From NCBI GenBank assembly GCA_046328255.1, contig JAXLWY010000003.1, forward strand, positions 64,398 to 128,397: a stretch of 64,000 nt of DNA. Reading direction: 5' to 3'. The number at the start of each line of letters is the position of its first letter. The stretch's first letter is position 1. A program made the translations under genes and the position numbers. The stretch comes from Dehalococcoidia bacterium. GTDB lineage: Bacteria > Chloroflexota > Dehalococcoidia > UBA2979. The notes beneath the pieces were generated by a model. That model ran no database searches, was not told the DNA's origin, and worked only from the letters and a program-made list of their open reading frames with translations. Of the stretch, positions 33,120-59,176 are shown in pieces.

Positions 33120-34268
33120 GTGGACCCCTCGAGGTCGCCCGCTCTCGAGCTCGTCCGCCGCACCTCCATCCGCTGGCGGCCGTTCCGCCTGCCGATGCGC
33201 CACCGCTTCGAGGCGGCGCACGGCGCGCTCGCCGATCGCGAGGGCGTCCTCCTCGAGCTCGCGGCCGCCGATGGCGTCACGGGGATGGGTGAGGCCTCGC
33301 CGATGGCCTCGATCGGCGGTGGGACCATGGCCGACGTGCTCGCGCTCCTCGAAGCGCACGCGGCCGCGTTGCTCCGCTCGGGTGACCCTCTCGACGTGCT
33401 GCCGCTCGTGGGGCCGGGCGTGGCCGCCCTGCGCTGCGCCGTCGATGTCGCGCTACTCGATCTCGAGGGCCACCGTCGAGGGATGCCGATCGCGCGACTC
33501 CTTGCGGCGGACGCGCCGGACGACGTCGCCGTGAACGCAATCATCGGCGGTGGCACACCGGCGGAAGTCGCGGCGAACGCCCTCGAAGCGCGCGCGGCGG
33601 GGTACTCCGTCGTCAAGCTGAAGGTCGGCATCGGCAGCGTCGAGGAGGACGTGGCACGGGTTCGCGCCGTCGGTGACGCCTGGCCACGGGCCATCATCCG
33701 CCTCGATGCGAACGGCGCGTGGAGCGAGGCAACGGCGCGCGAAGCTCTCGAGGCACTCGAGGGGCTGGAGGTCGAGCTGCTCGAGCAGCCGGTGCCTGCC
33801 GCAGATGTCGAGGCGCTGGGCCGCCTGACGCGAGTGACGGCCATCCCCCTCGGTGCGGACGAGGCACTGCGCGACGTGAGCACCCGGCAGGCGGTCCTCG
33901 GCGCGCGCGCTGCCGAGGTACTGGAGCTGAAGCCGATGGTCGTTGGCGGACTGCGTGAGGCGCTCGACATCGCGCGCGAGGGCGCCGGCCTGGGCATGCG
34001 GGCGCTCGCGACGACCACGTTCGATTCGAGCGTCGGGACGGCGGCCGCGCTGCACCTCGCCGCGGCGTTGCGTGCGGTGGCGCCGGGCAGCGAGCTGGCG
34101 CACGGCCTCGGCACCGGGGAACACCTCGCGGGGGACCTCGTGACACCGACGCTCGTGGCGACCAGCGGTCGCATGCGCGTGCCCCTCGGCGGCGGGCTCG
34201 GCATCGAGGTGGACACGGACGCCCTCGAGCGCCGGGCGCTGGGGCCGTGGCGGAACCTGAGTGCCTGA
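33120..34268 (+). CDS. menC: o-Succinylbenzoate synthase (enolase superfamily).
   Basis: 382 aa. MR/MLE motifs (KLKVG, IRLDANGAW, ELLEQP). GTG start. Confidence 0.8.
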   Translation: MDPSRSPALELVRRTSIRWRPFRLPMRHRFEAAHGALADREGVLLELAAADGVTGMGEASPMASIGGGTMADVLALLEAHAAALLRSGDPLDVLPLVGPGVAALRCAVDVALLDLEGHRRGMPIARLLAADAPDDVAVNAIIGGGTPAEVAANALEARAAGYSVVKLKVGIGSVEEDVARVRAVGDAWPRAIIRLDANGAWSEATAREALEALEGLEVELLEQPVPAADVEALGRLTRVTAIPLGADEALRDVSTRQAVLGARAAEVLELKPMVVGGLREALDIAREGAGLGMRALATTTFDSSVGTAAALHLAAALRAVAPGSELAHGLGTGEHLAGDLVTPTLVATSGRMRVPLGGGLGIEVDTDALERRALGPWRNLSA

Positions 34269-34323
34269 GTGGTCCCGTACTCTCGAAGGCGGTCAGAGTC
34301 GAACGCAGGCTGGGGAGCACCGA

Positions 34324-34932
34324 GTGCGCACACTCGTCGTGTCGGAGTTCGTGACGCTGGACGGGGTGATCGAGGCGCCCGGTGGCGAGACCTCGCACCC
34401 CCACACGGGCTGGACGATCCCGTTCGGGACGCCAGAGCTGTACGCCTACAAGCTGCGCGAGACCCTCGAGGCCGAGTCGCTGCTCCTCGGGCGCCGGACC
34501 TACGAGATGTTCGCCGAGGCGTGGTCGGTGCGCGACGGTGAGTTCGCCGACAAGATGAACGCGATGCCGAAGCACGTCGCCACCAGGACGCTGGAGCGCC
34601 TCGAGTGGAACGCCACACGCCTCGAGGGGCCGCTTCCCGCCGCGGTCGACGCCCTGCGGCACACCGAGGGCGGTCCGATCCTCCTTGCTGGCAGCGCGAC
34701 GCTCGCACAGACCCTTTTGCAGCACGGCCTCGTCGACGAACTGCGGCTGATGGTGTTCCCGGTCGCCATCGGCGGCGGCCTGCGACTGTTCCCCGAGGGC
34801 CGTCGGCGCCAGGCCTTCGAACTCGTCGAGCTGGAGCGCTATTCGAGCGGCGTCCTGCGGCAGATGTACCGGCCGACTGCGGAGCCGGATGCCGACTCCG
34901 GGGCGGCGGAACTCCAGGCCGCGCTTCGCTGA
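34324..34932 (+). CDS. Dihydrofolate-reductase-like protein (RibD C-terminal domain family).
   Basis: Start taken at a GTG with GGGGAG ribosome-binding site 6 nt upstream. Motifs VSEFVTLDGV...LLLGRRTYEMF...PILLAGSATL. Confidence 0.65.
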   Translation: MRTLVVSEFVTLDGVIEAPGGETSHPHTGWTIPFGTPELYAYKLRETLEAESLLLGRRTYEMFAEAWSVRDGEFADKMNAMPKHVATRTLERLEWNATRLEGPLPAAVDALRHTEGGPILLAGSATLAQTLLQHGLVDELRLMVFPVAIGGGLRLFPEGRRRQAFELVELERYSSGVLRQMYRPTAEPDADSGAAELQAALR

Positions 34933-34975
34933 GCGGCGGTCGCTCGAGCACGCCCGCGCCTGCCGGGGACGGTCC

Positions 34976-35626
34976 TCAGCGCGTGGCAGCCTCGAGGGGC
35001 GCGGGCGTACCCGTGCATGCGCGCCATGCCTGCGCAAGGAACACGCGGCCGTAGGCGGCGCCGGGGCAGTGGTTCTGCACGATGTGGTCCTCGAAGATGC
35101 CGTAGTTGCGCGTGAAGAAGTCGCGGCCCGCGAAGGCACGCGTGATGTCGAGGTAGGCGGCGCGCTCGCCCGGTGCAGGCACGTAGGCCTCGTCCACGGC
35201 GGGTGACGTCCAGAGCACGGATTCGAGGAGCGCGCGCACCGAGTCGACGCCGACGCGCACGAACGACTGCTGGTCCGCGGTCTCCGGGATGCCGAGGCGT
35301 ACGCACGCCCTCGCCAGCAGTGAGTGCATTGCTCGAGCCCACGCTTCGGTGCGCAGAGTGCCCGGCGCGGCTGTCGAGGCGGCTTCGCCGTAGGCCTCGA
35401 GGACGGCGCTCTCGTCGACGAGCTCCGGTAGTGCCTCGAGCAGGGCGTGGAGCTGCGGCGCGAACCCCTCCTGGAACTTCGACACCAGCGCCGAGTCCTC
35501 GTCGAGCCGTGCCAGCCGCCGCCACTCGGCGACGCCGACCTCACGCTCAAGCCAGTTACGCATGCGCGCCTCGAAGGCTACGAACGCCTCAGAGCCGGGC
35601 GCGGGCGGGGGGACGGATGCGGTCAT
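34976..35626 (-). CDS. Hypothetical protein.
   Basis: 216 aa from the MTASVPPP ATG. Helical, protein-like composition. Downstream of the ABC permease on the same strand. Confidence 0.4.
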   Translation of the reverse strand: MTASVPPPAPGSEAFVAFEARMRNWLEREVGVAEWRRLARLDEDSALVSKFQEGFAPQLHALLEALPELVDESAVLEAYGEAASTAAPGTLRTEAWARAMHSLLARACVRLGIPETADQQSFVRVGVDSVRALLESVLWTSPAVDEAYVPAPGERAAYLDITRAFAGRDFFTRNYGIFEDHIVQNHCPGAAYGRVFLAQAWRACTGTPAPLEAATR

Positions 35627-35772
35627 GGCCCGGAGTGTGGGCCCTGAGGGTGGCCGCAGCAAGCGACGGAGGTCACCGCCGGAGACGCCGTGCCGCATCC
35701 TCACCCGAGGGCAGCAAGAAGCCCCCGCGCGAGCGGGGGCTTCGTCGTATCGAGTCGCCTCGATCGCCCGTG

Positions 35773-36723
35773 CTAGCTGTACCGGATGCGCGGGTCCAGC
35801 CACGAGTAGGAGATGTCCACCATGAGGTTCGAGAGCAGGCTCACGCTCACGAGGATGAGCAGGATGCCCTGGACCAGCGGGTAGTCGCGCTGCGTGACCG
35901 CATCGATGTAGGTGCGGCCGATGCCGTTGATGGCGAAGACGCTCTCGACGATGACGGAGCCACCGATGACGCCCGCCACCTGGAATCCGAGGAGTGTCAC
36001 CACCGGGATGAGGGCGTTCCGGAACGCGTGCTTGTAGATGACGCTCATCTCCGCGAGGCCCTTGGCGCGCGCGGTGCGGACGTAGTCCTCACGCATGGCC
36101 TCGAGCATCGTGGTGCGGATCATGCGCATGTTCGAGGCCGAAGCGCTCAGACCAAGCACGGTCGCGCCCGGGATGAACTGCTGCAGGTTACCGAACGGGT
36201 TGGTGAAGATGCTCTGGTACGACATTGGTGGGAACCAGCCGAACCAGACGGCGCCGTAGATGATGACGAGCGTCGCCAGGAAGAAGTTGGGAATCGAGAT
36301 CCCGCCGATCGATATCGATCGGCCGATGTAGTCGATCCATGTGTCCTGGTAGATCGCGGATACCACCCCGATGGGTACCGCGATGATGAGGCCAATCGTC
36401 AGGGCGAGGAATCCGAGCTCGAACGAGATCGGCAGCGCGCGCCCGATGACCGCGGTCACCGGCTTGTTCTGCCAGTACGACTTGCCCCAGTCGCCCGTCA
36501 CGATGCCGCTGATCCAGCGCACGTACTGGATGTACGGCGGGACATCGAGGCCGAGCTCCTTGCGCAGCTTCTCGAGGAGTGCGGGGTCTGAGCCTCGCGA
36601 CTCCGCCATCTGCGCGACGATCGCGTCGCCGGGCATGATGCGCAGCAGCCCGAAGGTGAACATCGTCGTCACGATGATCGTCGGAATGAGGTAGAGGAGT
36701 CGCCGGATGATGTAGCGCTGCAT
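35773..36723 (-). CDS. ABC transporter permease (DppB/OppB family); no cognate partners adjacent.
   Basis: 316 aa, 6 transmembrane segments. EAA-like loop (RTARAKGLAEMSVIYKHAFRNAL). GGAGGG ribosome-binding site 6 nt upstream of ATG 36723. Confidence 0.85.
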   Translation of the reverse strand: MQRYIIRRLLYLIPTIIVTTMFTFGLLRIMPGDAIVAQMAESRGSDPALLEKLRKELGLDVPPYIQYVRWISGIVTGDWGKSYWQNKPVTAVIGRALPISFELGFLALTIGLIIAVPIGVVSAIYQDTWIDYIGRSISIGGISIPNFFLATLVIIYGAVWFGWFPPMSYQSIFTNPFGNLQQFIPGATVLGLSASASNMRMIRTTMLEAMREDYVRTARAKGLAEMSVIYKHAFRNALIPVVTLLGFQVAGVIGGSVIVESVFAINGIGRTYIDAVTQRDYPLVQGILLILVSVSLLSNLMVDISYSWLDPRIRYS

Positions 36724-37083
36724 CAGTTCCCTCCGCTCGGTCGAGGTGTCGACCTCAACCCCTCTGCGTACCGACGTCCGAAAACGACGCCTGCCCCGAT
36801 AGTACGCACACGATGGCCGGTCCGATCTGTCGAGGCCCTCGGAACATCGACATCGACCGGACCCACCGGCACCCGAGGGCGGCGGCAGGTCACGAATGTG
36901 TACCCGATCGGGCCGGATCCTGCAACACGACCGTTTGTGTTGTGTCAGAGCCTTGCGAGCCCCTCGAGTCCCGCTCGGCTGTCGGATTTGACGCGGCGGG
37001 GTCGCGCCCGGAGAATCAGGCGCCACTGTAATTGCGCGCGTGCCGGGCGCTCGCAGGCGCCATCGAGGGGTGACAGGGCCGTA

Positions 37084-37764
37084 ATGCCTGACTACTACTA
37101 TTTCGACCTCCATTCACACTCCACCGACGCCTCCGACGACGCCGGCGGCACCGTCGAGGGCTACCTGAAGTGGATCGTGGCTCGCCGGAAGAAGGGGTAC
37201 AAGATCAACGGGATCGTGCTGACGGAGCACCGCCAGTTCGACCCGAACGTCGACTACTCGGCGCTGGCGGAGCAGTACGACGTGGTGGTGCTCAAGGGTG
37301 CCGAGGTGGAGACGGACATCGGGCACGTCCTCACCTATGGGCTCACCCCGCAGTTCACCTCGCAGTTCGACCTCTCGAACGTCTCGCTGCCCTACCAGGA
37401 CGTGTTTAACGCGATGTACGACTGCGGCGGGTTCGCCGTCGGCGCGCACGCCGGTCGGCCGCGCATCGGCCTCGAGGAGCACTACCGGCTCCGAGGTGTC
37501 TCGGTTCCGCCGGTGAAGGTCGTCGAGCAGCTGAATGGCGGCAGCAACGACGAGGAGAACGGCCGCGCGCTGGTTTTCGCGAAGGAGCACGGACTCGGCC
37601 GCGTGGGGGGCTCCGACGCGCACTTCGTCAGCGCGATCGGGCGCTGCCTCACCGCGTTCAGGCGACCGGTGAAGTCCGTGGAGGACCTGGTCCAGGAGCT
37701 GAAGAGCGGTGAGTTCTTCCCGGTGACGGTCGAGCAGACGCTGACCGGACACGGGGACGAGTAG
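37084..37764 (+). CDS. PHP-domain phosphoesterase.
   Basis: FDLHSHS motif at the N-terminus, with later His/Asp ligands (GAHAGRP, GGSDAH). Confidence 0.7.
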   Translation: MPDYYYFDLHSHSTDASDDAGGTVEGYLKWIVARRKKGYKINGIVLTEHRQFDPNVDYSALAEQYDVVVLKGAEVETDIGHVLTYGLTPQFTSQFDLSNVSLPYQDVFNAMYDCGGFAVGAHAGRPRIGLEEHYRLRGVSVPPVKVVEQLNGGSNDEENGRALVFAKEHGLGRVGGSDAHFVSAIGRCLTAFRRPVKSVEDLVQELKSGEFFPVTVEQTLTGHGDE

Positions 37765-37832
37765 GCTCGCAGCGCAACGCAGGGCATCGGTTCGCAGCCC
37801 CGAGGACGACTCGGGCAGGCCTCGGAGGGGCA

Positions 37833-38294
37833 ATGACAGCAGACGGTACGCAGGACGCGCAGTTCGAGTACGACAAGAGCGTCGTGGGCGTACAGGTGCA
37901 GCTCGGTGAGTTCACCATTACGTCGGAGCAGGTGCAGAAGTACTGCGCCACCATGGGCGAGCAGAACCCGCAGTTCACCTCGGGGAAGACGGCGCCACCC
38001 GGCATGCTGAGCTCGGTCTCGTTCGGGGGCGGGCAGGCGCTCGATCCGAAGGTGAAGTTCGGCAACACCTCGTTCATGGCCGGCTCGCGCATGGAATTCA
38101 AGCAGCCGCTCGAGGTGGGCAAGCCGATCAGGGCGCAGACTTCGGTGAAAGAGGTATACGGGAAGACCGGTCGCACCGGCACGATGGTCTTCATCGTGCG
38201 GCGGACCGAATTCCTCGATTCCGCGAGCGGCTCGCTGCTCGGCGCGATGGAGCAGTCGACCGTGCTCCGCGAGACGGAGGCCGTGCGTGAGTGA
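37833..38294 (+). CDS. MaoC-like (hot-dog) dehydratase, HadA-like N-terminal subunit.
   Basis: 153 aa hot-dog fold. Followed by a second hot-dog gene with a GTG/TGA overlap. Confidence 0.65.
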   Translation: MTADGTQDAQFEYDKSVVGVQVQLGEFTITSEQVQKYCATMGEQNPQFTSGKTAPPGMLSSVSFGGGQALDPKVKFGNTSFMAGSRMEFKQPLEVGKPIRAQTSVKEVYGKTGRTGTMVFIVRRTEFLDSASGSLLGAMEQSTVLRETEAVRE

Positions 38295-38727
38295 TCAGCG
38301 CTTCTTCGACGAGGTCAGCCTCGGCGATGAATACGCCGAGGAGATGACGCCGACTCCCGAGCTCGTGCGCGACTTCCTGGCGTTGAACCCCGCCCGAGGG
38401 GGACCCGGCGACGGCCGCTTCACCAGCGACGAGGGTGCACGCAGCATCGGCATGCGGGCGGCGATCGTGCCCGGCGTGATGAGCATGTCGATCATCAGCC
38501 GCCTCGTCGAGGACTGGATGGGCCCGCAGGGCACCCTCCACTCCCTCGATGTGTCGTACCGCCGTCCGGTGCTGCAGGGCGATGAGCTCAAGCTGCAGGC
38601 GCTGGTGACCGATGCCGATGAGACGCCCGAGGGCCCTCGAGTGAAGCTCGACGTCTACATGGAGAACGCGCGCGGCGAGCGCCCGCTGCAGGGCACCGCC
38701 GTGGTGGAGCTGCCTCGGAAGGCGTAA
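38287..38727 (+). CDS. MaoC-family (R)-specific hydratase/dehydratase, HadB-like subunit.
   Basis: 146 aa hot-dog fold (...GARSIGMRAAIVPGVM...). Confidence 0.65.
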   Translation: MSDQRFFDEVSLGDEYAEEMTPTPELVRDFLALNPARGGPGDGRFTSDEGARSIGMRAAIVPGVMSMSIISRLVEDWMGPQGTLHSLDVSYRRPVLQGDELKLQALVTDADETPEGPRVKLDVYMENARGERPLQGTAVVELPRKA

Positions 38728-38886
38728 CCACCGAGTCGCGACGTAATCCGGCCGCCGCTCGCGGCGGTCGAAGACAGAACGAGGCGGCCATGAAGCCGCC
38801 TCGTTGGTTCGTCACGGGTGCGAGGCTTGAATCGGCGTCGACCGAACCTGACCCGCCCGGTGCGCCGAGTTATGGTTGGCCGGCCC

Positions 38887-39372
38887 TCAATCCCAGGGCC
38901 AGCGATCGGTTCCCTCGAGGAGCGCGCGCAGGTGGTTCACCTCGCCCGCGTGGTAGAGGTCGTGCTCCTGGACGATGCGCACGATGTCGCGAATCTGCAT
39001 CCGCTCGTGCCAGGGCGTTGGTCGCTCCTCGGTCAGTCGGAGGTCGGTGATCGCACCCAGCGAGGTCGTGAACCGCCGGTGTCCCTCGCGCAGCCACTCG
39101 ACGACGGCTTCGCGGCCCGATGGCGCCACCACCGGCGGCTGGCCGTTCTCAAACGTGGCGTCACCGAACGCGTAGTTCTCGTACATGTACTTCGCGCCGC
39201 CGACGTGCCCGAGGATGGCGCCGACCGTGCGCCCGGCACCCTCGGGCACCTTGCTCCACGCGTCGTCGGGGAAGCTGGCGACGTTCGCGAGCAGGGAGTG
39301 CTCACCACCGTCGAACGCCTGGTCCAGCAGCCAGACGAGGTGCTCCACGGTCGAGCGCGGTCCTGAGGCCAT
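38887..39372 (-). CDS. DinB/YfiT-family (DinB_2) protein.
   Basis: 161 aa. His-rich four-helix motifs (GHVGGAKYMYENYAF, VQEHDLYHAGEV). GGAGG ribosome-binding site. Confidence 0.65.
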   Translation of the reverse strand: MASGPRSTVEHLVWLLDQAFDGGEHSLLANVASFPDDAWSKVPEGAGRTVGAILGHVGGAKYMYENYAFGDATFENGQPPVVAPSGREAVVEWLREGHRRFTTSLGAITDLRLTEERPTPWHERMQIRDIVRIVQEHDLYHAGEVNHLRALLEGTDRWPWD

Positions 39373-39416
39373 GCCCCCTCCTCGAGGTTGATGCGACCTG
39401 TCCAGCGTACCGCGCG

Positions 39417-40070
39417 CTACCCCTCGCCCTGGCCGACCTCCATCTGCAGCCGTTGCATCACCCTCTCGAACGCCGGGTACTCCTGCGCGCCGACGATCGC
39501 GTACTTCTCGTTGAAGATGAACGTGGGGATGCCCGTGACGCCGATGGCGCGCGACCACTCGATGCCGGCGTCCACCTCGTCTGCGAAGCGCCCGGTCGTC
39601 AGTGCGTCGCGCACGTCGTCACGGTCCATCGAGTGCTGCCCGGCGATATCGGTTAGCACGTCGATGTTCGAGATGTCGGCGTGGTCGTCGAAGTGCGCCT
39701 TGAACAGCTGCCGGTGGAGCGCGTCGATGGCGGCGCCTTCGAGGCCATGCCCGTACGCGTACTCCTGCAGCTCGAGCGCCCGGTGCGTGTTCGGGGTGAA
39801 GCGGCGCCCTCGCCGGAACAGGATGCCCGACTCCTCGCCGCGCAGCTCGAGGTGGGACTTCGGCGTGTCCGCCGTGGTGGTGGGTTCGCGGGTCCGACCC
39901 TCAGGCGGGATCGTGGGATCGAGGAAGAAGGGGACCCACCGGACGTGCGTGTCCGGATACTCGCGCTGGACCTTCTCGACCTCCACGAGGCCGACGTAAC
40001 ACCACGGTCAGATGAAGTCTGACACCACCAGCAACGAAATGCCGCTTGCCTTCGAGTCGTCCTGGACCAC
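39417..40070 (-). CDS. DsbA/FrnE-family thiol-disulfide oxidoreductase with an in-frame TGA at the first active-site Cys position; candidate selenoprotein (UxxC) or nonsense pseudogene.
   Basis: GTG 40070 with GAGGAG ribosome-binding site 6 nt upstream. Reads MVQDDSKASGISLLVVSDFI-TGA(40010..40008)-PWCYVGLVEVEKVQREYPD..., then 189 aa of FrnE-like sequence in the same frame. An 8-bp hairpin UCGGCCUC-GUG-GAGGUCGA starts 14 nt after the UGA. Confidence 0.5.
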
Positions 40071-40252
40071 GCGCTGCTCCTCGAGTCCCGGTGTGGCGAG
40101 CGCCACGTTGATCTGGTGTATCGCATGCATCGTAGCAATCGGAGCCGCGCACCGCGCCATCGAGGCGCGAAGGCGCGGGTTTGTCCCGAGCGCGGACGTC
40201 TCGCCGTCGGATTAGCCTCCGAGATGACGTTCGGTCCGGCTGACGAGGGACC

Positions 40253-41032
40253 ATGCCCAACCCGAGGTTCCTGCCCCGCGAACCATTCCTGGAGCGCCTC
40301 GCCGCGCGGGCAGCGCGCCGCAGTTCCGCGGCCAGTCGCGGCGAGATCTCGCTGCTCGCGGGCGCCGGCGTCGTAGTCTGGGCCTTCCTCACCGTCACGG
40401 TGCTCGTCTCGACGCCCCAGGCATTGCCACTCCAGCAGACACAGCTGGCCGTCGGCGTCGGCGGTGGACTCGTGCGCACCGAGGCACCCGCCGAGGCGCC
40501 CGCGGCCTCCGACCCGCCGTCCTCGACTTCCGCGCTCTCGACGCCCAACGCTCCGACGGCGGCCCCGACACCGCCTCCGGCAACCCCGACGCCCGTCGTC
40601 GCGGCCGGACCGCCGCCCTCGAGTGCGAAGTCCGCGCCCAGCACGCCCGCGCCCACGCCTCGCACGACGGCCACGCCGGTGCCGTCACCCGCTCCCCCGG
40701 TGGCGCCGCCGGCGCTTCCGGTCGAACCGCCCGCTGCGACGCCCGCGGCCACACCGACCGCGACGCCGACGCCGAGCTCGACTCCCGCGCCGTCGGTCAC
40801 ACCGGCCGGGGAGAGCGTGCAGGTGGTGGGACCGAACGGGACCGTGATCACCGGGCCCCGCGGTGGACCGCTCAACACTCGCGGTGCCGACCTCTACAAC
40901 TGCAGCGACTTCACGAACTTCGAGCAGCTGATCGCCGTCTTCATCGCAAGCGGTCCCTCTGATCCAAACCACCTCGACCCCCAGCACACCGGTAGCCCGT
41001 GTCCGCCCGAGGACGAGCAGCAGGTCGAGTAG
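40253..41032 (+). CDS. Membrane-anchored Pro/Ala/Thr-rich protein with a C-terminal Excalibur Ca-binding domain.
   Basis: N-terminal transmembrane segment, about 120 aa of low-complexity P/A/T linker, and a C-terminal DLYNCSDFTNFEQLIAVF...LD...G.PC. Confidence 0.7.
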   Translation: MPNPRFLPREPFLERLAARAARRSSAASRGEISLLAGAGVVVWAFLTVTVLVSTPQALPLQQTQLAVGVGGGLVRTEAPAEAPAASDPPSSTSALSTPNAPTAAPTPPPATPTPVVAAGPPPSSAKSAPSTPAPTPRTTATPVPSPAPPVAPPALPVEPPAATPAATPTATPTPSSTPAPSVTPAGESVQVVGPNGTVITGPRGGPLNTRGADLYNCSDFTNFEQLIAVFIASGPSDPNHLDPQHTGSPCPPEDEQQVE

Positions 41033-41064
41033 CGTGCTGCGCGCTGGCGTGGAATGCCGGGGCG

Positions 41065-42327
41065 ATGCACCATGGGCCCCATGAAACCCTCCTTGCACGG
41101 TTCGGTCCGGTCCGCATCACGAGCGCAGCCGTGGTAGAGGCACCCGAGGCGACGATCACCACCGCCGAGGACGTCGAGCGCGTCGCCGACGCGCTGCGCG
41201 CCGCTGGCGCGTTCGCCCTCGACCTCGAGTTCATGTCCGAGGAGCGCTACGTGCCCGAGCTGGCGCTCGTGCAGGTGGCGTGGCGCTCGAGCGGCGTACC
41301 GACGGCGGTCGCCATCGACCCCCTCTCAGTCGACGCCTCCCCCATCGCGAGGTTGGTCGCGGACCCCTCGGTGGTCACGATCCTGCACTCCGGCCAGGCC
41401 GACCTCTCGTTGCTGCGCGCGCGTTTCGCCGTCGCCGGCGCGTCCATCGTCGACACGCAGGTGGCGGCGGCCTTCCTCGGCATGGGCGAGCAGATTGGAT
41501 ACGCGCCGTTCATCCAGCGCACACTCGGGCTCACCGTCGACAAGGGTGGCCAGTTCACCGAGTGGCTGCGACGCCCGCTGTCCGAGGATCAACTTCGCTA
41601 CGCCCTCGACGACGTGCTCCACCTGTTGCCCGCGTGGCAGCTCGTCGAAGAGGACCTGCGCGCCCGGGGACGCCTCGCGTGGGTCCTCGAGGAGTGCGAG
41701 CGCATGGCGCGCGGCTGGTCGGAGCGTCCCGCCCCCGAGGAGATGTACCGTCGCGTGGCAGGCTGGGCCACGCTCCGCCCGCGGCAGCAGGGCGCGCTGC
41801 GAGCAGTGGCCGCCTGGCGCGAGCGCGAATCGCTGTCCGCGAACCGCCCGCCCGCCCGCCTCGTCGCCGAGCGTACGCTGCTCGAGCTGGCGCGCCGCCC
41901 TCCACGGACCGCCGAGGGCCTGCGCGAGGTGCGCGGCATGACCGACGGCATCGTGCGCCGGTTCGGCGCGCAGATCCTCACCGCGCTCCACGAGGGCGAA
42001 CAGCACCCGACCGACGGTGGCGACGCCCCCCGGCCCCTGCCGCCCGCGGCGCAGGCGTGGGCCGGCGTGCTCGGTGGACTGGTGCAGGCGCACTGCCGCG
42101 ATGCCGACATCGCGGCGCGCTTCGTCGCCTCGCGCGCCGACCTCGAGGCTGTGGCCTTGTGGTGGTTCGAGGGCGATCACGACCTCGAGCCCGACGTACC
42201 GGTGATGCGTGGGTGGCGTCGTGAGCTGGTCGGCGAGGTGGTGCTGCGGTGGCTGCACGGTTCGCTGGGCCTCGTCGCCGACGTGCTCTCGCCGTTCGGA
42301 TTCCGCCTCGTCGACCTGCCTTCGTAG
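41065..42327 (+). CDS. rnd: Ribonuclease D (DEDDy 3'-5' exonuclease plus HRDC).
   Basis: FALDLEF...VQVA, ...ILHSGQADL, ...Y...DV exonuclease motifs, and an HRDC-like C-terminus. Confidence 0.75.
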   Translation: MHHGPHETLLARFGPVRITSAAVVEAPEATITTAEDVERVADALRAAGAFALDLEFMSEERYVPELALVQVAWRSSGVPTAVAIDPLSVDASPIARLVADPSVVTILHSGQADLSLLRARFAVAGASIVDTQVAAAFLGMGEQIGYAPFIQRTLGLTVDKGGQFTEWLRRPLSEDQLRYALDDVLHLLPAWQLVEEDLRARGRLAWVLEECERMARGWSERPAPEEMYRRVAGWATLRPRQQGALRAVAAWRERESLSANRPPARLVAERTLLELARRPPRTAEGLREVRGMTDGIVRRFGAQILTALHEGEQHPTDGGDAPRPLPPAAQAWAGVLGGLVQAHCRDADIAARFVASRADLEAVALWWFEGDHDLEPDVPVMRGWRRELVGEVVLRWLHGSLGLVADVLSPFGFRLVDLPS

Positions 42328-42517
42328 CCTCATCAGACAGAACGATAGACGGGCTTCGCGACAGAAACGCGCATGCACGTGCCCGGATATGCCGTTACGT
42401 AGCTCACGACGGATCGTGCTGCCATCAAGAGGCGGTTACGTCCGCTGGCGCCGCCCTGTCGCTGCAAGCGCGGACCCAGCCCGCGCCGCACGACGCGTTC
42501 TGTCTCAGGCGATGAGG
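42328..42517. repeat. Inverted-repeat-flanked, lower-GC intergenic element.
   Basis: CCTCATCAGACAGAACG (42328..) pairs with CGTTCTGTCT-caggc-GATGAGG (42495..42517). The right arm overlaps the lldD-like stop and the left arm abuts the rnd stop. The interior ~150 nt is AT-richer than the surrounding sequence. Confidence 0.45.
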
Positions 42518-43596
42518 TCGGGCGTGAGGTCGCCGAGGGTGGCCGCGCCGCAGAGTGCCATCGCGAGGTCGAGCTCGCCCGCCAGCAGCTCGAGGACGTG
42601 ACGCGCGCCCGCCTCGCCGTCCACCGCGAGCCCCCACAGGAGCGGCCGCCCGAGGAGCACGCCCCGCGCACCGAGGGCGATCGCCTTCACGACGTCGGTG
42701 CCGCGCCGCACGCCGCCATCGACCAGCACCTCGATGCGACCGGCGACTGCCTCGATTACCTCGGGCAACGCCTCGATGGTGGACACGGCGGTGTCGAGCT
42801 GGCGTCCGCCGTGGTTAGAGACCACGAGGGCGGAGGCGCCCGCCTCGATGGCGAGGACGGCGTCATCGCCTCGGAGGATGCCCTTCACGATCACCGGCAG
42901 GCGGGTGATCGAACGCAGCCACGTCACGTCGCCCCACGTAATCGAGGGGTCCATGAGCGAAGCGAAGTAACGACCGAGTCCGGACTGGCCCGGGGCGGCC
43001 AGGGGACGTCGCATCAGCTCGAGTTCAAAGTTCGCGGCAGCAAGCCCCGGGGGCAGGGCGAACGCATTGCGCGCATCGCGCTCGCGGCGGCCGAGCAGCG
43101 GCGCGTCCACGGTGAGCACCAGGGCTTCGTAGCCGGCGGCCTCCGCGCGCTCGACCAGTGAGCGAGTGAGGTCGCGATCTGCATAGACGTAGAGCTGAAA
43201 CCAGCGGGGGCCGTCTGCGGCCGCCGCGACGTCCTCGATGGAGGCCGTCGCGAGCGTGCTGAGCGTGAACGCGACGCCGAAGGAGGCCGCGGCCCGCGCG
43301 AGCGCGAGTTCGCCCTCAGGGTGCGCGAGGCGCTGAAAGGCCATGGGGGCCGTGATGATGGGCTGCGGGTGCACTCGACCGAGCACCACGGTGGATGGGT
43401 CGCGGTTCGAGACGTTGCGCATGACGCGCGGCCGCAGCCTCAGTCGCTGGAAGGCCTCACGGTTGGCAGCGAGCGTGATCTCGTCGTGGGCGCCGCTGGC
43501 AAAGTAGTCGAGCGCCATCGTGGGCAGATGCTCGGCGGCCAGAGCCTCGTACTCATCGAGATTCAGGGGACGCGGAGCCCGAGCGGACTGAGTCAT
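42505..43596 (-). CDS. FMN-dependent alpha-hydroxy-acid dehydrogenase (L-lactate dehydrogenase/glycolate oxidase family).
   Basis: TIM-barrel FMN motifs (ITAPMAFQ, LVLTVDAP, VVSNHGGRQLD). An alternative ATG at 43623 adds 9 residues. Confidence 0.8.
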   Translation of the reverse strand: MTQSARAPRPLNLDEYEALAAEHLPTMALDYFASGAHDEITLAANREAFQRLRLRPRVMRNVSNRDPSTVVLGRVHPQPIITAPMAFQRLAHPEGELALARAAASFGVAFTLSTLATASIEDVAAAADGPRWFQLYVYADRDLTRSLVERAEAAGYEALVLTVDAPLLGRRERDARNAFALPPGLAAANFELELMRRPLAAPGQSGLGRYFASLMDPSITWGDVTWLRSITRLPVIVKGILRGDDAVLAIEAGASALVVSNHGGRQLDTAVSTIEALPEVIEAVAGRIEVLVDGGVRRGTDVVKAIALGARGVLLGRPLLWGLAVDGEAGARHVLELLAGELDLAMALCGAATLGDLTPDLIA

Positions 43597-43677
43597 GGCC
43601 CGGAGCTTAGCCGAGGAGCGCATGCACGGAAGGGACCGTCGGCACCTCGCGTGACCTCGGCATCTGAGCGGCGAACC

Positions 43678-44226
43678 TCAGCCCGAGTACGTCCAGCCGG
43701 TGTACGTGGTGGTCAGCGGCTCGGCGCTGTGCTGGATGCGACCGTCAACGACGCGGCCGACGACGAGCACGTGGTCGCCCGCGGGTGCTTCCGACTCGAG
43801 CGTGCACTCGAGCCACATCAGCGCGTCCTCGAGAAGCGGCAGGCCTCGCGAGGAGCGCGCGTAGTCGATGCCGTCCAGCTTCTGGTGGTGCTGTCGCGAC
43901 GCGGTTTCACGCCGCCCCTCCACCTTCGAGGCGTCGGCGGGCTGGACGAACTGCATCGCCATCCGCATGGAGTCGGGTTCGGCGGTCAGGAGGTTGATCG
44001 AGAAGCAGCCCGACGCCCGGATGCGCCCGAGCGAGCTCGAATCCGCCTCGAGGACCACGGCCACCAGCCGAGGGTTGAACGACACCTGCATCACCCAGTC
44101 GGCCACCATCACGTTCGCTTCCTGCGCATCGACCGAGCCGATTGCGTAGACGCCATACGGCATCTGGTGCATCGCCTCGGCGACCGGGTCGATATGGCGG
44201 TGGGGCACTGAGGGCAGGTCGGGCAT
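43678..44226 (-). CDS. Flavin reductase (FMN-binding split-barrel).
   Basis: 182 aa from the MPDLPS ATG. GAGGAG ribosome-binding site 5 nt upstream. Confidence 0.65.
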   Translation of the reverse strand: MPDLPSVPHRHIDPVAEAMHQMPYGVYAIGSVDAQEANVMVADWVMQVSFNPRLVAVVLEADSSSLGRIRASGCFSINLLTAEPDSMRMAMQFVQPADASKVEGRRETASRQHHQKLDGIDYARSSRGLPLLEDALMWLECTLESEAPAGDHVLVVGRVVDGRIQHSAEPLTTTYTGWTYSG

Positions 44227-44399
44227 CGGTGCTCCTCGAAGCGGCGTGGCCTGGTGCGTGACGGGGTGATCGAGTCGGAGTCGAGCGGGGACCAGCCCAC
44301 TGTAGCCAACGTGGACGCTCGGGCCACGCCTCGTTACGATGGCGCCGTCCCGGTCGCGGGACGTTGACGCGCGCCCGCGGTGTCGCTTCGGAGGTCGTA

Positions 44400-45095
44400 G
44401 TGGCATTCGTTATCACGCAGCCCTGCATCGACACGACCGACAAGTCGTGCGTCGAGGTGTGCCCGGTGGACTGCATCCACTACGAAGAGGGCACCGACCG
44501 GATGCTCTACATCAACCCCGCCGAGTGCATCGACTGCGGCGCGTGCCAGCCCGCGTGTCCCGTGTCCGCGATCTATCCGGACGGCGACGTCCCTGCCGAG
44601 ATGGCCCCCTTCACCGAGATCAACGCGCTCTGGTACGACGACGCCGCCGGCGCGCGCCAGCGCGTCGCGGCGCTCCTCGGCGGCAGCGCGGCGCCTGCCG
44701 CTCCCGCCCCTGCTGCTGCCGCCGCAGCGCCCGCGGCGGCCGCATCCACCGAGGCATCCGCGGCAGCGCCCGCGACAGAAGCCCCCGCAGCCGCTGCAGC
44801 CGCTGCAGCCGCCGAGGCGCCCGCCGCCCCGGCGGTCGCCGAGGTCGCGTACAGGCCCCCGACGCCGCACGCCGGCAAGGCCGACTTCAAGAAGGCGTTC
44901 GCCGGGTTCAGCTACCCGATCTCGAAGGATGGCGTCTTCCGAGGCGCCCGCGACAAGGGCGGGCTGGACCGCGAGGTCGGGCGCATCCTCGCGCAACTGC
45001 CCGGCAAGAAGTACCGCTCCGAGGAGGAACTCGTCGAGGCGGTGCGCTGGGTGTACATGATGTACGGGGTGCCGGAGGACGCGCTCCCCGTCTAG
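44400..45095 (+). CDS. fdxA: 7Fe ferredoxin (FdxA-type) with a long Ala-rich C-terminal extension.
   Basis: GTG start with GGAGG ribosome-binding site 5 nt upstream. CIDTTDKSCVEVCPVDCI...CIDCGACQPACP is a [3Fe-4S][4Fe-4S] motif. The tail is AAPAAPAPAAAAAAP... Confidence 0.8.
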   Translation: MAFVITQPCIDTTDKSCVEVCPVDCIHYEEGTDRMLYINPAECIDCGACQPACPVSAIYPDGDVPAEMAPFTEINALWYDDAAGARQRVAALLGGSAAPAAPAPAAAAAAPAAAASTEASAAAPATEAPAAAAAAAAAEAPAAPAVAEVAYRPPTPHAGKADFKKAFAGFSYPISKDGVFRGARDKGGLDREVGRILAQLPGKKYRSEEELVEAVRWVYMMYGVPEDALPV

Positions 45096-45248
45096 CCGAG
45101 GGTGGCGTGCACGGCGAGCCCGTCAGGCTCCGTCGCGACGCATAGACCTGACGGGTCACTGAGAAGCTGCCGCTACGCGCGACTCTGAGGGGCGGAGTAC
45201 CCTCGCGAGCACGGGTGCACCGAGGCAGGCCGAGCGCGGGAGGGTCAG

Positions 45249-46304
45249 ATGCGCAGCGCCAGGGACTTCTTCAAGCCGCTCGCGGTCGGCGCGCCACAGC
45301 CGCTCCATGAGATCGAGGTGCGGCCGGGCCGCATGATCCACTTCTTCCCGCCGCACAACGAACGGATGCGCGAGCGCATTCCCGAGATCATCCCCCAGGT
45401 CGACATCCTCCTCGGCAACCTGGAGGACGCGATCCCCGCCGACGCCAAGGTCGATGCCCGCCGGGGACTCATCGAGGTCGCGCGAAACAACGAGTTCGGC
45501 AACACCCAGCTCTGGACGCGCGTCAACAGCCTCGACAGTCCGTGGTGCCTCGATGACCTGATGGAGCTCGTCGAGGCGGTCGGCGACAGGCTCGACGTAA
45601 TCATGGTGCCCAAGGTGGAGGGCGCGCACGACATTCACTACGTCGATCGCCTCCTCGCGCAGCTCGAGGGGCGCCACGGGCTGCGCAAGCCCCTGATGAT
45701 CCACGCGATCCTCGAAACCGCCTCGGGCGTGAACAACGTCGAGGAGATCGCCGGCTCGAGTCCGCGCATGCAGGGCATCTCGCTCGGCCCGGCGGACCTC
45801 GCCGCCTCGAGGCGCATGAAGACGACGCGCGTCGGCGGAGGTCACCCCGGCTACGTCGTGCGCGCCGACGCCGACGCCGCCAATCCCGAGGCAGCTCGCG
45901 GGACCGCGCAGCAGGACCTGTGGCACTACACGATGGCGAAGATGGTCGATGCGTGCGCCGCCAACGGCATCCTGCCCTACTACGGCCCATTCGGCGACAT
46001 CGGCGACCCCGTGGCGTGCGAGGACCAGTTCCGCAACGCCTTCCTCATGGGCTGCGTCGGCGCCTGGTCGCTGCACCCGAGTCAGATCGAGATCGCCAAG
46101 CGCGTCTTCAGCCCGGATCCCGAGGAGGTGGCGTTCGCGCGCCGCATCGTCGAGGCGATCGGCTGGGCGGGCTCCGGCGTGGCGATGCTCGACGGCAAGA
46201 TGCAGGATGACGCGACGTTCAAGCAGGCGAAGGTGATCCTCGCAACCGCTGAGCTGATCGCCAAGAGCGACCCCGCCTTCGCCACCGCCTACGGCTTCGA
46301 GTAG
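45249..46304 (+). CDS. HpcH/HpaI-family CoA-ester lyase (CitE / malyl-CoA-lyase-like).
   Basis: 351 aa with CitE-like motifs (...[19 protein letters not shown]). GGGAGGG ribosome-binding site. Confidence 0.7.
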
Positions 46305-57343: not shown

Positions 57344-59176
57344 TCAGGGGGTCTTGCGCTGCGGCGCGTCCTTGTCGAGCCACATCGAGCTCAGGTTGTG
57401 GTTGGCGTAGCAGACCCACCCATCGAGGAGGCCGTGGGGGCGGTAGTTGAGCACCCAGTTGTGCCACGCCGACCGCAGGTGTGCCTCCGGCCACCAGAGG
57501 TCCCACACCTGCTCGTGGATCGTGGTCCAGATCTTCTGCCACGTTGCCTTGCGGCTCTCGAGGTTCGACTCGCGACGCTGCTGGTCGAGCAGCTTATCGA
57601 GGTCGTCGTTCCCCTTCGACCCGTAGTTCAGCCCGCCCTTCGAGTGGTACCAGGGGTAGAGCCACTGGTCGACGGAGTTGCCGGGCGGCCCCCAGACGAT
57701 CCCTGTCGTCTCCTGGAAGCTGCGGTCCGCGAGAGCCGCCACCTGCGTCGCCGAGTCGATCTGCTTGAGCTCGACCTTCACCTCCGGCAGTACGCCATTC
57801 AACGAGGGGATGATCTCGCCGGACGCTTCGCGGTCGTACCACGTCACGTGGCTCCAGCGCAGCGGCCGTTCCTTCGAGAAGCCCGCCGCCTGCATCAGGC
57901 GGCTCGCCTCCTTCGGGTCGTAGGCGTAGTAGCGGCCGTTGGCCTTGCCGGTGGGCGCGCCATCGAAGAGGAACGGCCAGGGCAGCGGGGCATTCGAGTA
58001 CGGCCCCTCCGGGTTGGCGTTGTCGCCCGCGTTGCGACTCTCGTCGATCTTCGTGCGGTCGATCGCCAGCGAGATCGCGCGGCGTACGCGCTCGTCGCGG
58101 AACGAGGGCGAGCGCATCTGGAACTGCCAGCCGTTGGTGTTCGAACCGCGCGACCGTGGACGCGTCCACATCACCATGTCGTTGACCCGCGATCCCATCG
58201 AGTCGGTGTCGGAGTCGTCGAGGGCGGTCCAGAAGGCGTATGTGTTGTCGGCAAAGCCCTTGGCCTGCGCGCTGAGGTCGTTCTGCACGTGCGCCACGTA
58301 GCGATCGATATACGGACGGCCGGTCTCGTAGTAGTCGGGATGCTTCCGGAAGACGGAGCGTTCCTGCTTCGTCCACTCTTCCTGGATGAACGGCCCCGAC
58401 CCGACGGCCTTCGTCTGGATCAGGTTGTCGTCCTCCACCAGCTCCTTGAGCCAGATGAAGCACCATGCCGCGAGGTCCGTGGGCAGGTCCACGCGCGGAC
58501 TCGCGAGGCGCACGCGCACCGTCGAGGCGTCAGGCGCGTCAATCGATGCGACCTCGGCGAACACGTCCTTCTGGGAGCCGCCCGCGCGATAGCGCTCGAG
58601 GGAAAGCCGCACGTCCTCAGACGTGAGATCGCGGCCGTTCGCGGGAGCGACGTTGTGCGTCTTCACGCCCTTCCGCAGGTGGAACGTGAACTCCAGGTTG
58701 TCCGGCGTCGCCTCCCAGCTCGAGGCGAGGTCTGGCTCGATCTCGGGCAGCACGGCGTTCGCGCCCGCACCCACCTTCACCCGCGTCAGCCGCGAGTTGG
58801 TGAGGTTCATCGTGTGCTGCACCGTGCATGAGAGCGTGCGGTTGATGTCCATCGTGGTGGGGTCGAGGTAGCGGTCGACCAGCGTGCCGCCGGGAATCGC
58901 GTTCGCGGATGGATTCGCCTCCGCGGCGGTGGGTGCCAGGATTCGCCGGTACGAGCCGGGCGTCAGCCGCACGTCGCCCGCCGCGACGCTCGGTGCCGGC
59001 TCCGGAGCCGCCGTGCGGGCCGCGCGCGCAGTCGCGCTCGCCGCGGGCTCCGGCGGCGGAGCGCTCGAGGAGCACCCGAGCAGGGCTGCGCCGGCCATCC
59101 CTGCGATGCTCGCGGCCCCGCCTCGGAGGGCTGCTCGCCGGGTGAGTCTGCGGCTCCAGTACCCACGCTCGGCCAA
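57344..59176 (-). CDS. ABC-transporter substrate-binding lipoprotein, family 5 (peptide/nickel, DppA/OppA-like); no cognate partners adjacent.
   Basis: Tat-like leader SRRLTRRAALRGGAASIAGMAGAALLGC with a lipobox. 610 aa. Confidence 0.8.
   Translation of the reverse strand: MAERGYWSRRLTRRAALRGGAASIAGMAGAALLGCSSSAPPPEPAASATARAARTAAPEPAPSVAAGDVRLTPGSYRRILAPTAAEANPSANAIPGGTLVDRYLDPTTMDINRTLSCTVQHTMNLTNSRLTRVKVGAGANAVLPEIEPDLASSWEATPDNLEFTFHLRKGVKTHNVAPANGRDLTSEDVRLSLERYRAGGSQKDVFAEVASIDAPDASTVRVRLASPRVDLPTDLAAWCFIWLKELVEDDNLIQTKAVGSGPFIQEEWTKQERSVFRKHPDYYETGRPYIDRYVAHVQNDLSAQAKGFADNTYAFWTALDDSDTDSMGSRVNDMVMWTRPRSRGSNTNGWQFQMRSPSFRDERVRRAISLAIDRTKIDESRNAGDNANPEGPYSNAPLPWPFLFDGAPTGKANGRYYAYDPKEASRLMQAAGFSKERPLRWSHVTWYDREASGEIIPSLNGVLPEVKVELKQIDSATQVAALADRSFQETTGIVWGPPGNSVDQWLYPWYHSKGGLNYGSKGNDDLDKLLDQQRRESNLESRKATWQKIWTTIHEQVWDLWWPEAHLRSAWHNWVLNYRPHGLLDGWVCYANHNLSSMWLDKDAPQRKTP

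Follow-up and report, generated by a model that had tools for sequence, protein, structure and literature searches.

An in-frame TGA at the active site of a Dehalococcoidia FrnE/DsbA-type gene very probably encodes selenocysteine

DsbA-like selenoproteins, with selenocysteine (Sec, U) in a UxxC motif, were described in 2005 from nine Sargasso Sea sequences assigned to COG2761, the FrnE group (PMC1088965), and in 2006 from sequenced Deltaproteobacteria and Clostridia (PMC1794560). A survey of 2016 counted 45 such genes in 41 organisms (PMC5029168), and a review of 2026 lists the family as 'DsbA-like protein form 1, PF01323, UxxC' (PMC13188914). A related Cys-containing protein of known structure is FrnE of Deinococcus radiodurans (drFrnE; DR_0659; 5CNW, 5CP1), which belongs to the FrnE subfamily cd03024 and acts in the cytoplasm as a disulfide reductase/isomerase. 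Its C-terminal CXXXXC aids active-site regeneration, a tail that some homologues do without (PMC8945050). Here we describe a gene at positions 39417..40070 (minus strand) of a 64,000-nucleotide stretch of contig JAXLWY010000003.1, from an assembly (GCA_046328255.1) of a Dehalococcoidia bacterium; this whole stretch is referred to below as the window. The gene is very probably an intact FrnE/DsbA-type oxidoreductase gene in which an in-frame TGA encodes Sec as the N-terminal redox residue.

The original prediction, that of a DsbA/FrnE-family UxxC selenoprotein at this locus, is supported by four lines of evidence: a TGA conserved among relatives, a conserved reading frame on both sides of it, orthologues with Cys at the same position, and a hairpin downstream. 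The gene shares with the described DsbA-like selenoproteins the same Pfam domain, a UxxC motif with Sec at its N-terminal position, the existence of Cys homologues, and a hairpin of the bacterial Sec insertion sequence (bSECIS) type directly downstream of the UGA. It belongs to this known family, whose published exemplars NIP15863.1 and AACY01178397 were compared with it by description only; a look-up of NIP15863.1 among the protein clusters found no link.

The reading frame and its redox motif

The gene runs on the minus strand from a GTG start at 40070..40068 to a TAG stop at 39419..39417, a frame of 217 codons in a window with a G+C content of about 70%. Its sole internal stop is the TGA at 40010..40008, which is codon 21, and it contains no frameshifts. 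The frame translates as VVQDDSKASGISLLVVSDFI*PWCYVGLVEVEKVQ..., also given as VVQDDSKASGISLLVVSDFI*PWCYVGLVEVEK..., where the asterisk stands for the TGA. Re-reading it confirmed the continuous frame, the lone TGA and the translation that had been reported earlier, the M of that translation being the initiator reading of a first codon that is GTG. A Shine-Dalgarno-like GAGGAG at 40077..40082 (minus strand), 6 nt upstream of the GTG, is a putative ribosome-binding site by its sequence. The placement of the start matches that of the Cys-form homologue P0002, whose redox residue is likewise preceded by 20 residues.

When the internal stop is replaced by C, the translation matches the Pfam domain DSBA (PF01323) over residues 15-205, corresponding to profile positions 4-190 of 191, with E=5.9e-28 and 98.4 bits against a cutoff of 25.6. 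This bears out the full-length FrnE/DsbA-like domain that had been proposed in this frame, and since the match begins at residue 15, before the TGA, the domain spans the TGA. In a phmmer search the best solved relative is drFrnE (5CNW/5CP1; E=1.4e-17, residues 11-197), and the putative DsbA SCO1869 of Streptomyces (3GL5) is also among the best. The similarity to drFrnE is distant and consists of one 187-residue local alignment, in which SDFI-U-PWCY of the window protein nevertheless aligns column by column with SDIACPWCY of drFrnE and with SDFICPWCY of the Cys homologues. The two proteins share the active-site context SD[FI]xCPWCY[IV]G, with Sec in place of the first Cys in the window protein, as well as the cis-Pro loop region G[IV]TG[IV]P and the lack of a signal peptide. 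In that loop region, which in the FrnE subfamily has the conserved pattern G-[IV]-P-[TF]-F and faces the active site, GVTGIPTFIF of the window protein aligns with GITGVPFFVL of drFrnE, and alignment A1 shows no variation at P182, T183 and F184; the proline would be expected to adopt the cis conformation.

The position of the TGA is thus that of the first Cys of the drFrnE CPWC motif, the residue numbered Cys22 of 22-CXXC-25 (PMC8945050), where the window protein would have Sec21. The second residue of the pair is C24, encoded by codon 24 and the only Cys of the protein. Whereas drFrnE continues into the tail 239-CXXXXC-244, which is implicated in active-site regeneration, residue 217 is the last of the window protein, which has no such tail and in this resembles the tail-less FrnE proteins of S. 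roseofulvus and D. maricopensis (PMC8945050). As there is no other Cys, no redox pair but U21 and C24 is possible, and as the C-terminal CXXXXC is absent as well, the reductant must be external. Strand beta-1 begins at about residue 11, leaving no room for an N-terminus resembling a signal peptide, and the protein is therefore predicted to be cytoplasmic, probably like drFrnE.

A second family was considered and rejected. The Rcas_1661 thioredoxin-like (seleno)lipoprotein family (NF041057), whose name presumably refers to Roseiflexus, also comprises thioredoxin-fold (seleno)proteins and shows weak local similarity to the window protein over residues 117-207. With 29.3 bits, however, the window protein falls short of the NCBIfam equivalog cutoff of 190, and it lacks a lipoprotein signal; it is not a member.

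Conservation of the TGA and its exchange with Cys

Relatives of the gene were gathered from one-genome-per-species bacterial assemblies, from JGI/ENA metagenomes and from contigs encoding database proteins. The homologous codon is TGA in 24 Dehalococcoidia/Chloroflexota loci that were assembled independently and come from metagenome-assembled genomes (MAGs) and metagenome contigs (besides the window, L001-L010, L022-L024, L028-L032, L034, L062 and L102-L104). Their proteins are about 50-87% identical to that of the window, and the frame is kept on both sides of the TGA in all of them. The peptide preceding the TGA is conserved as [ILV]x[VI][VI]SD[FY]I. Within it the Ser at position -4 is invariant (22/22) while its codon may be TCA, TCC, TCG or AGC, and the Val at -6 is encoded by GTG, GTC or GTT. 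That one invariant Ser is specified by such different codons indicates selection on the translated protein upstream of the TGA. Downstream, the database protein P0001 is 94% identical to the window protein, without gaps, over the 189 amino acids that follow the TGA.

Homologues with a sense codon at this position have Cys there, in the context SDFICPWCY, as had been claimed: the alignment puts this Cys exactly at the TGA. They include P0002, encoded by locus L021 (codon TGC), which is a close Cys form 78% identical to the window protein, the loci L025-L027 (TGC or TGT), and many more distant sequences. Among the 120 closest protein clusters, defined at 90% identity (P0001-P0120), 46 contain the CPWC motif. 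In a rough neighbour-joining tree the truncated forms, which are presumed to carry Sec, group into a single large block, within which P0002 and P0016 stand as isolated Cys tips, a pattern compatible with occasional reversion from Sec to Cys.

The candidate SECIS hairpin and Sec decoding

Downstream of the UGA the coding strand contains a candidate bSECIS hairpin (39976..39994, minus strand). It lies 13 nt after the UGA, its first base being the 14th from there, and has an 8-bp stem, UCGGCCUC/GAGGUCGA, with the loop GUG; an alternative pairing gives 7 bp and the 5-nt loop CGUGG. In the published bSECIS model the apical loop has 3-9 nt and the upper stem 4-16 bp (PMC13188914, Fig. 2 legend), a G stands in the first two loop positions and is usually followed by G or U, the distance from UGA to loop is 16-37 nt, and the minimum free energy is -7.5 kcal/mol or lower (PMC13188914). 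The window hairpin lies within the model in every respect, with a loop of 3 nt in which U follows G, a stem of 8 bp, a spacing of 21 nt and a minimum free energy of -10.7 kcal/mol, so that the 8-bp hairpin with a GU-containing loop that had been predicted at the expected place of a SECIS is indeed present. Like the bSECIS elements of E. coli fdhF and fdnG, it lies within the coding region, directly 3' of the UGA, and has a small apical loop with G then U, 20-21 nt from the UGA. It differs from the E. coli element in having no sequence similarity to it and in its minimal loop, which has 3 nt, or 5 nt when the closing C-G is unpaired.

Comparison among relatives provides further evidence on the hairpin. 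For 22 Sec-form sequences RNAalifold predicts a 7-bp stem and a loop N1-G-U-N-N2, the loop pattern of the published model, in which N1 and N2 are a C-G pair in 19/22; the stem pairs are formed in 97.7% of cells across these sequences. In a comparison of 15 full-length orthologues, three of the four four-fold third-codon sites in the stem are invariant, as against 1/28 elsewhere in the gene (Fisher p=0.003), and free variation is seen in the loop codon and in the codon that follows the stem on its 3' side. This excess of synonymous conservation, resting on few sites, is supportive of a function of the hairpin. The Cys forms L025-L027 have neither the hairpin nor the GLVEVE peptide that it encodes. 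L021 (163-228, plus strand), which encodes P0002, has TGC at the redox position yet keeps both the complete hairpin, with the loop GUC, and the GLVEVE peptide; by its sequence it looks like a recent switch from Sec to Cys.

Several results weigh against the hairpin, and against Sec decoding more generally. The fold of the 50-nt region is not exceptional for its composition (z = -1.16, with 23/200 shuffles as stable), and the bSECIS model has low specificity here, since 14.9% of the window's 1225 TGA triplets pass it. No covariation was found in the hairpin among the 22 sequences, in which 6/8 pairs never vary; with the stem invariant, the test is uninformative. Given chance passes of about 15% and the lack of covariation, the hairpin counts only in comparison with the relatives. 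One of these, the orthologue L004 (9977-10026, plus strand), keeps the TGA and shows a C-A mismatch halfway along the stem. A scan of the window with Rfam at gathering thresholds matched no family, including SECIS or tRNA-Sec. ARAGORN found no tRNA-Sec in ten related loci or in the window, where it found no tRNA gene at all, and tblastn with E. coli SelA, SelB and SelD probes gave no match at E<=1e-3 in the window and about 0.9 Mb of related flanks. Genes of the Sec machinery are normally unlinked to selenoprotein genes. For this reason, and because the E. coli probes are approximate, the negative is a soft one and has no bearing on the remainder of the genome.

The mismatch in L004 arises from GAGATC in place of GAGGTC, which changes Val to Ile, and may be an error of assembly or a weakening of the SECIS that is tolerated. 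A scan for in-frame TGA in the flanks of 21 related loci revealed nothing resembling a second selenoprotein gene, so that linked genes gave no indirect proof of Sec use.

That this lineage decodes Sec is supported from the literature only (PMC13326102, PMC1794560, PMC5389517). A study of 2006 scored Chloroflexi as Sec-decoding (PMC1794560), and a Chloroflexi tRNA-Sec of the unusual 8/4 form has been described (PMC5389517). Two Dehalococcoidia MAGs with 49 and 46 selenoproteins are among the richest bacteria in BSepDB (PMC13326102).

We propose that translation would start at the GTG at 40070 and that the mRNA hairpin (39994..39976), about 20 nt downstream, would tether SelB-GTP and Sec-tRNA(Sec) at the UGA (40010..40008), where Sec would be inserted instead of termination to yield a protein of 217 amino acids. 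These steps follow the established bacterial pathway (PMC13188914). In the resulting protein U21 and C24 would cycle between a selenol/thiol and a selenenylsulfide, reducing or isomerising disulfides of partner proteins. Sec, with its lower pKa and higher nucleophilicity, would bring the usual catalytic advantage. In this scheme the insertion of Sec, the presence of selA, selB, selC and selD in the genome, and the redox substrates are inferred.

TGA is otherwise used as an ordinary stop codon in the window, where it terminates 16/44 long ORFs (open reading frames) with a high G+C content at third codon positions (GC3). When every TGA in the window was scanned for coding-like flanks in the same frame, two sites were returned, the proposed Sec codon and a TGA at 57344..57346 (minus strand). 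The latter was rejected as a case of readthrough, as Pfam recognizes two unrelated complete genes there, a solute-binding protein (SBP_bac_5) and an enoyl-CoA hydratase (ECH_1). With TGA an ordinary stop elsewhere and a single credible in-frame TGA, the proposed recoding is site-specific, as it is for Sec and unlike the reassignment of a codon.

Alternative readings, gene calls and neighbourhood

Four alternatives to Sec insertion were weighed. The one that survives best, though it is very improbable, is an error of sequencing or assembly, the true codon being TGC or TGT and the protein a Cys-form FrnE like P0002. The existence of P0002/L021, with its 78% identity and the same hairpin, shows that Cys forms occur within the clade. 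The closest relatives L001 and L002 have TGA in independent assemblies, however, and the protein calls P0001 (94% identical) and P0003 (89%) are truncated at the same point. Nor could the lesions that hinted at a low-quality assembly be confirmed. The original prediction had mentioned many other frameshift lesions, a claim that is unsubstantiated near the gene (34000..46000): five neighbouring genes each give a single near-full-length colinear tblastn match to relatives, a sixth (ORF 40253..41032) has a near-full-length match in L001 only, and the changes of GC3 frame across 34000..46000 fall where one gene ends and another begins. At 70% G+C the presence of long overlapping ORFs on the two strands is a usual artefact.

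Less probable still is that the public annotation is correct and that the functional product is a DsbA fold without CxxC, 189 amino acids long and starting at the GTG at 39986. ORF finders report this ORF (39417..39986, minus strand; 'MEVEK...') instead of the 217 codons, its start being the GTG at 39984..39986 in the loop of the hairpin. Gene callers give the corresponding truncated form in 74/120 of the closest clusters, with lengths of about 173-227 amino acids (most about 185-200), and most of these begin with (M/V)EVE, at the start codon that comes first downstream of the TGA. Single-Cys DsbA-like proteins are indeed known (PMC8945050). Against this reading, the 20 codons upstream of the TGA, which include strand beta-1 and SDFI, are conserved as protein in 22/22 loci, and the Pfam domain starts before the TGA. 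A stable hairpin has the internal GTG in its loop, no Shine-Dalgarno sequence precedes this GTG, and a protein starting there would lose the nucleophile, its only Cys (C24) and the N-terminus of helix alpha-1.

We give hardly any credence to a recoding of the UGA to an amino acid other than Sec (Trp, Cys or Gly), whether by genome-wide reassignment or by SECIS-independent readthrough. Some lineages of uncultivated bacteria have reassigned UGA, and the Sec machinery was not found in the window or the related flanks, both of which count in its favour. The lineages known to reassign UGA have a low G+C content, unlike this genome at about 70%; TGA is an ordinary terminator in the window, with one in-frame candidate; and the site both corresponds to a catalytic Cys, as in the classic Sec/Cys pair, and is followed at canonical spacing by a conserved SECIS-like hairpin. 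Finally, the nonsense pseudogene that the original prediction gave as the alternative, in which a C/T-to-A change would have turned the catalytic Cys codon TGC or TGT into TGA in a decaying gene, requires one base change and drew on the unsubstantiated lesions elsewhere in the window, but is effectively refuted by the same TGA in 24 related loci at about 50-87% identity and scarcely fits a frame with no second stop or frameshift in 217 codons, protein-level purifying selection on the upstream codons, gap-free 94% identity to P0001, and hairpin sites held synonymously frozen as a decaying gene would not hold them.

Returning to Sec insertion as the preferred reading, the 189-residue call is explained by a gene caller that halts at the Sec codon and picks up again at the GTG of the SECIS loop. 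The TGA was read at the DNA level for 24 of the truncated forms. None of the 120 clusters is annotated with U, and the only names given at source are 'predicted DsbA family dithiol-disulfide isomerase' and 'hypothetical protein [Chloroflexota bacterium]'. The clade is systematically mis-annotated in public gene calls. The correct reading restores a U-x-x-C oxidoreductase where the annotation lacks a redox motif, and this correction is its chief value; as both the family and selenoprotein-rich Dehalococcoidia are already documented, no new question is opened. The reading also marks the organism as a Sec user and so predicts selA, selB, selC and selD elsewhere in the genome, and probably dozens of other selenoprotein genes.

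A broader proposal, which we consider doubtful, is that the Sec-FrnE proteins of Dehalococcoidia/Chloroflexota form a large, separately evolved orthologous clade of at least 74 clusters at 90% identity that is missing from selenoprotein catalogues owing to the truncated calls. Such a clade would be marked by a near-invariant 19-nt SECIS that dictates the peptide G-L-V-E-V-E and by Sec-to-Cys revertants that keep the SECIS, as in L021. If this were true, revertants of the L021 type would offer a ready-made system for studying the gain and loss of Sec sites.

The neighbourhood of the gene is alike around Sec and Cys forms. It comprises PHP_C, a pair of FAS1_DH-like and MaoC dehydratases, and RNase D, which in the window lie on the plus strand at 36898..38727 and 40999..42327, and it was found in L003, L004, L007-L009, L025, L027, L030 and L102-L104. 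This shared neighbourhood indicates that the Sec-form and Cys-form loci are orthologues between which Sec and Cys have been interchanged. A DinB_2 gene resembling mycothiol S-transferase (MST; 38887..39372, minus strand; DinB_2 E=1.8e-11) starts 44 nt after the stop codon of the selenoprotein gene and is possibly co-transcribed with it. As a general functional partner this gene was rejected, since besides the window it occurs only in the two closest relatives, L001 and L002. The divergent ORF at 40253..41032 (plus strand) encodes 259 amino acids rich in Pro, Ala and Thr. It has no Pfam match but is conserved in L001-L003, with tblastn identities of 34-75%, and so is probably a real gene. In L102-L104 a set resembling menaquinone biosynthesis genes adjoins the gene (chorismate-binding, thiamine pyrophosphate enzyme, abhydrolase, UbiA, MR_MLE and AMP-binding), joined in L102 only by ECH_1.

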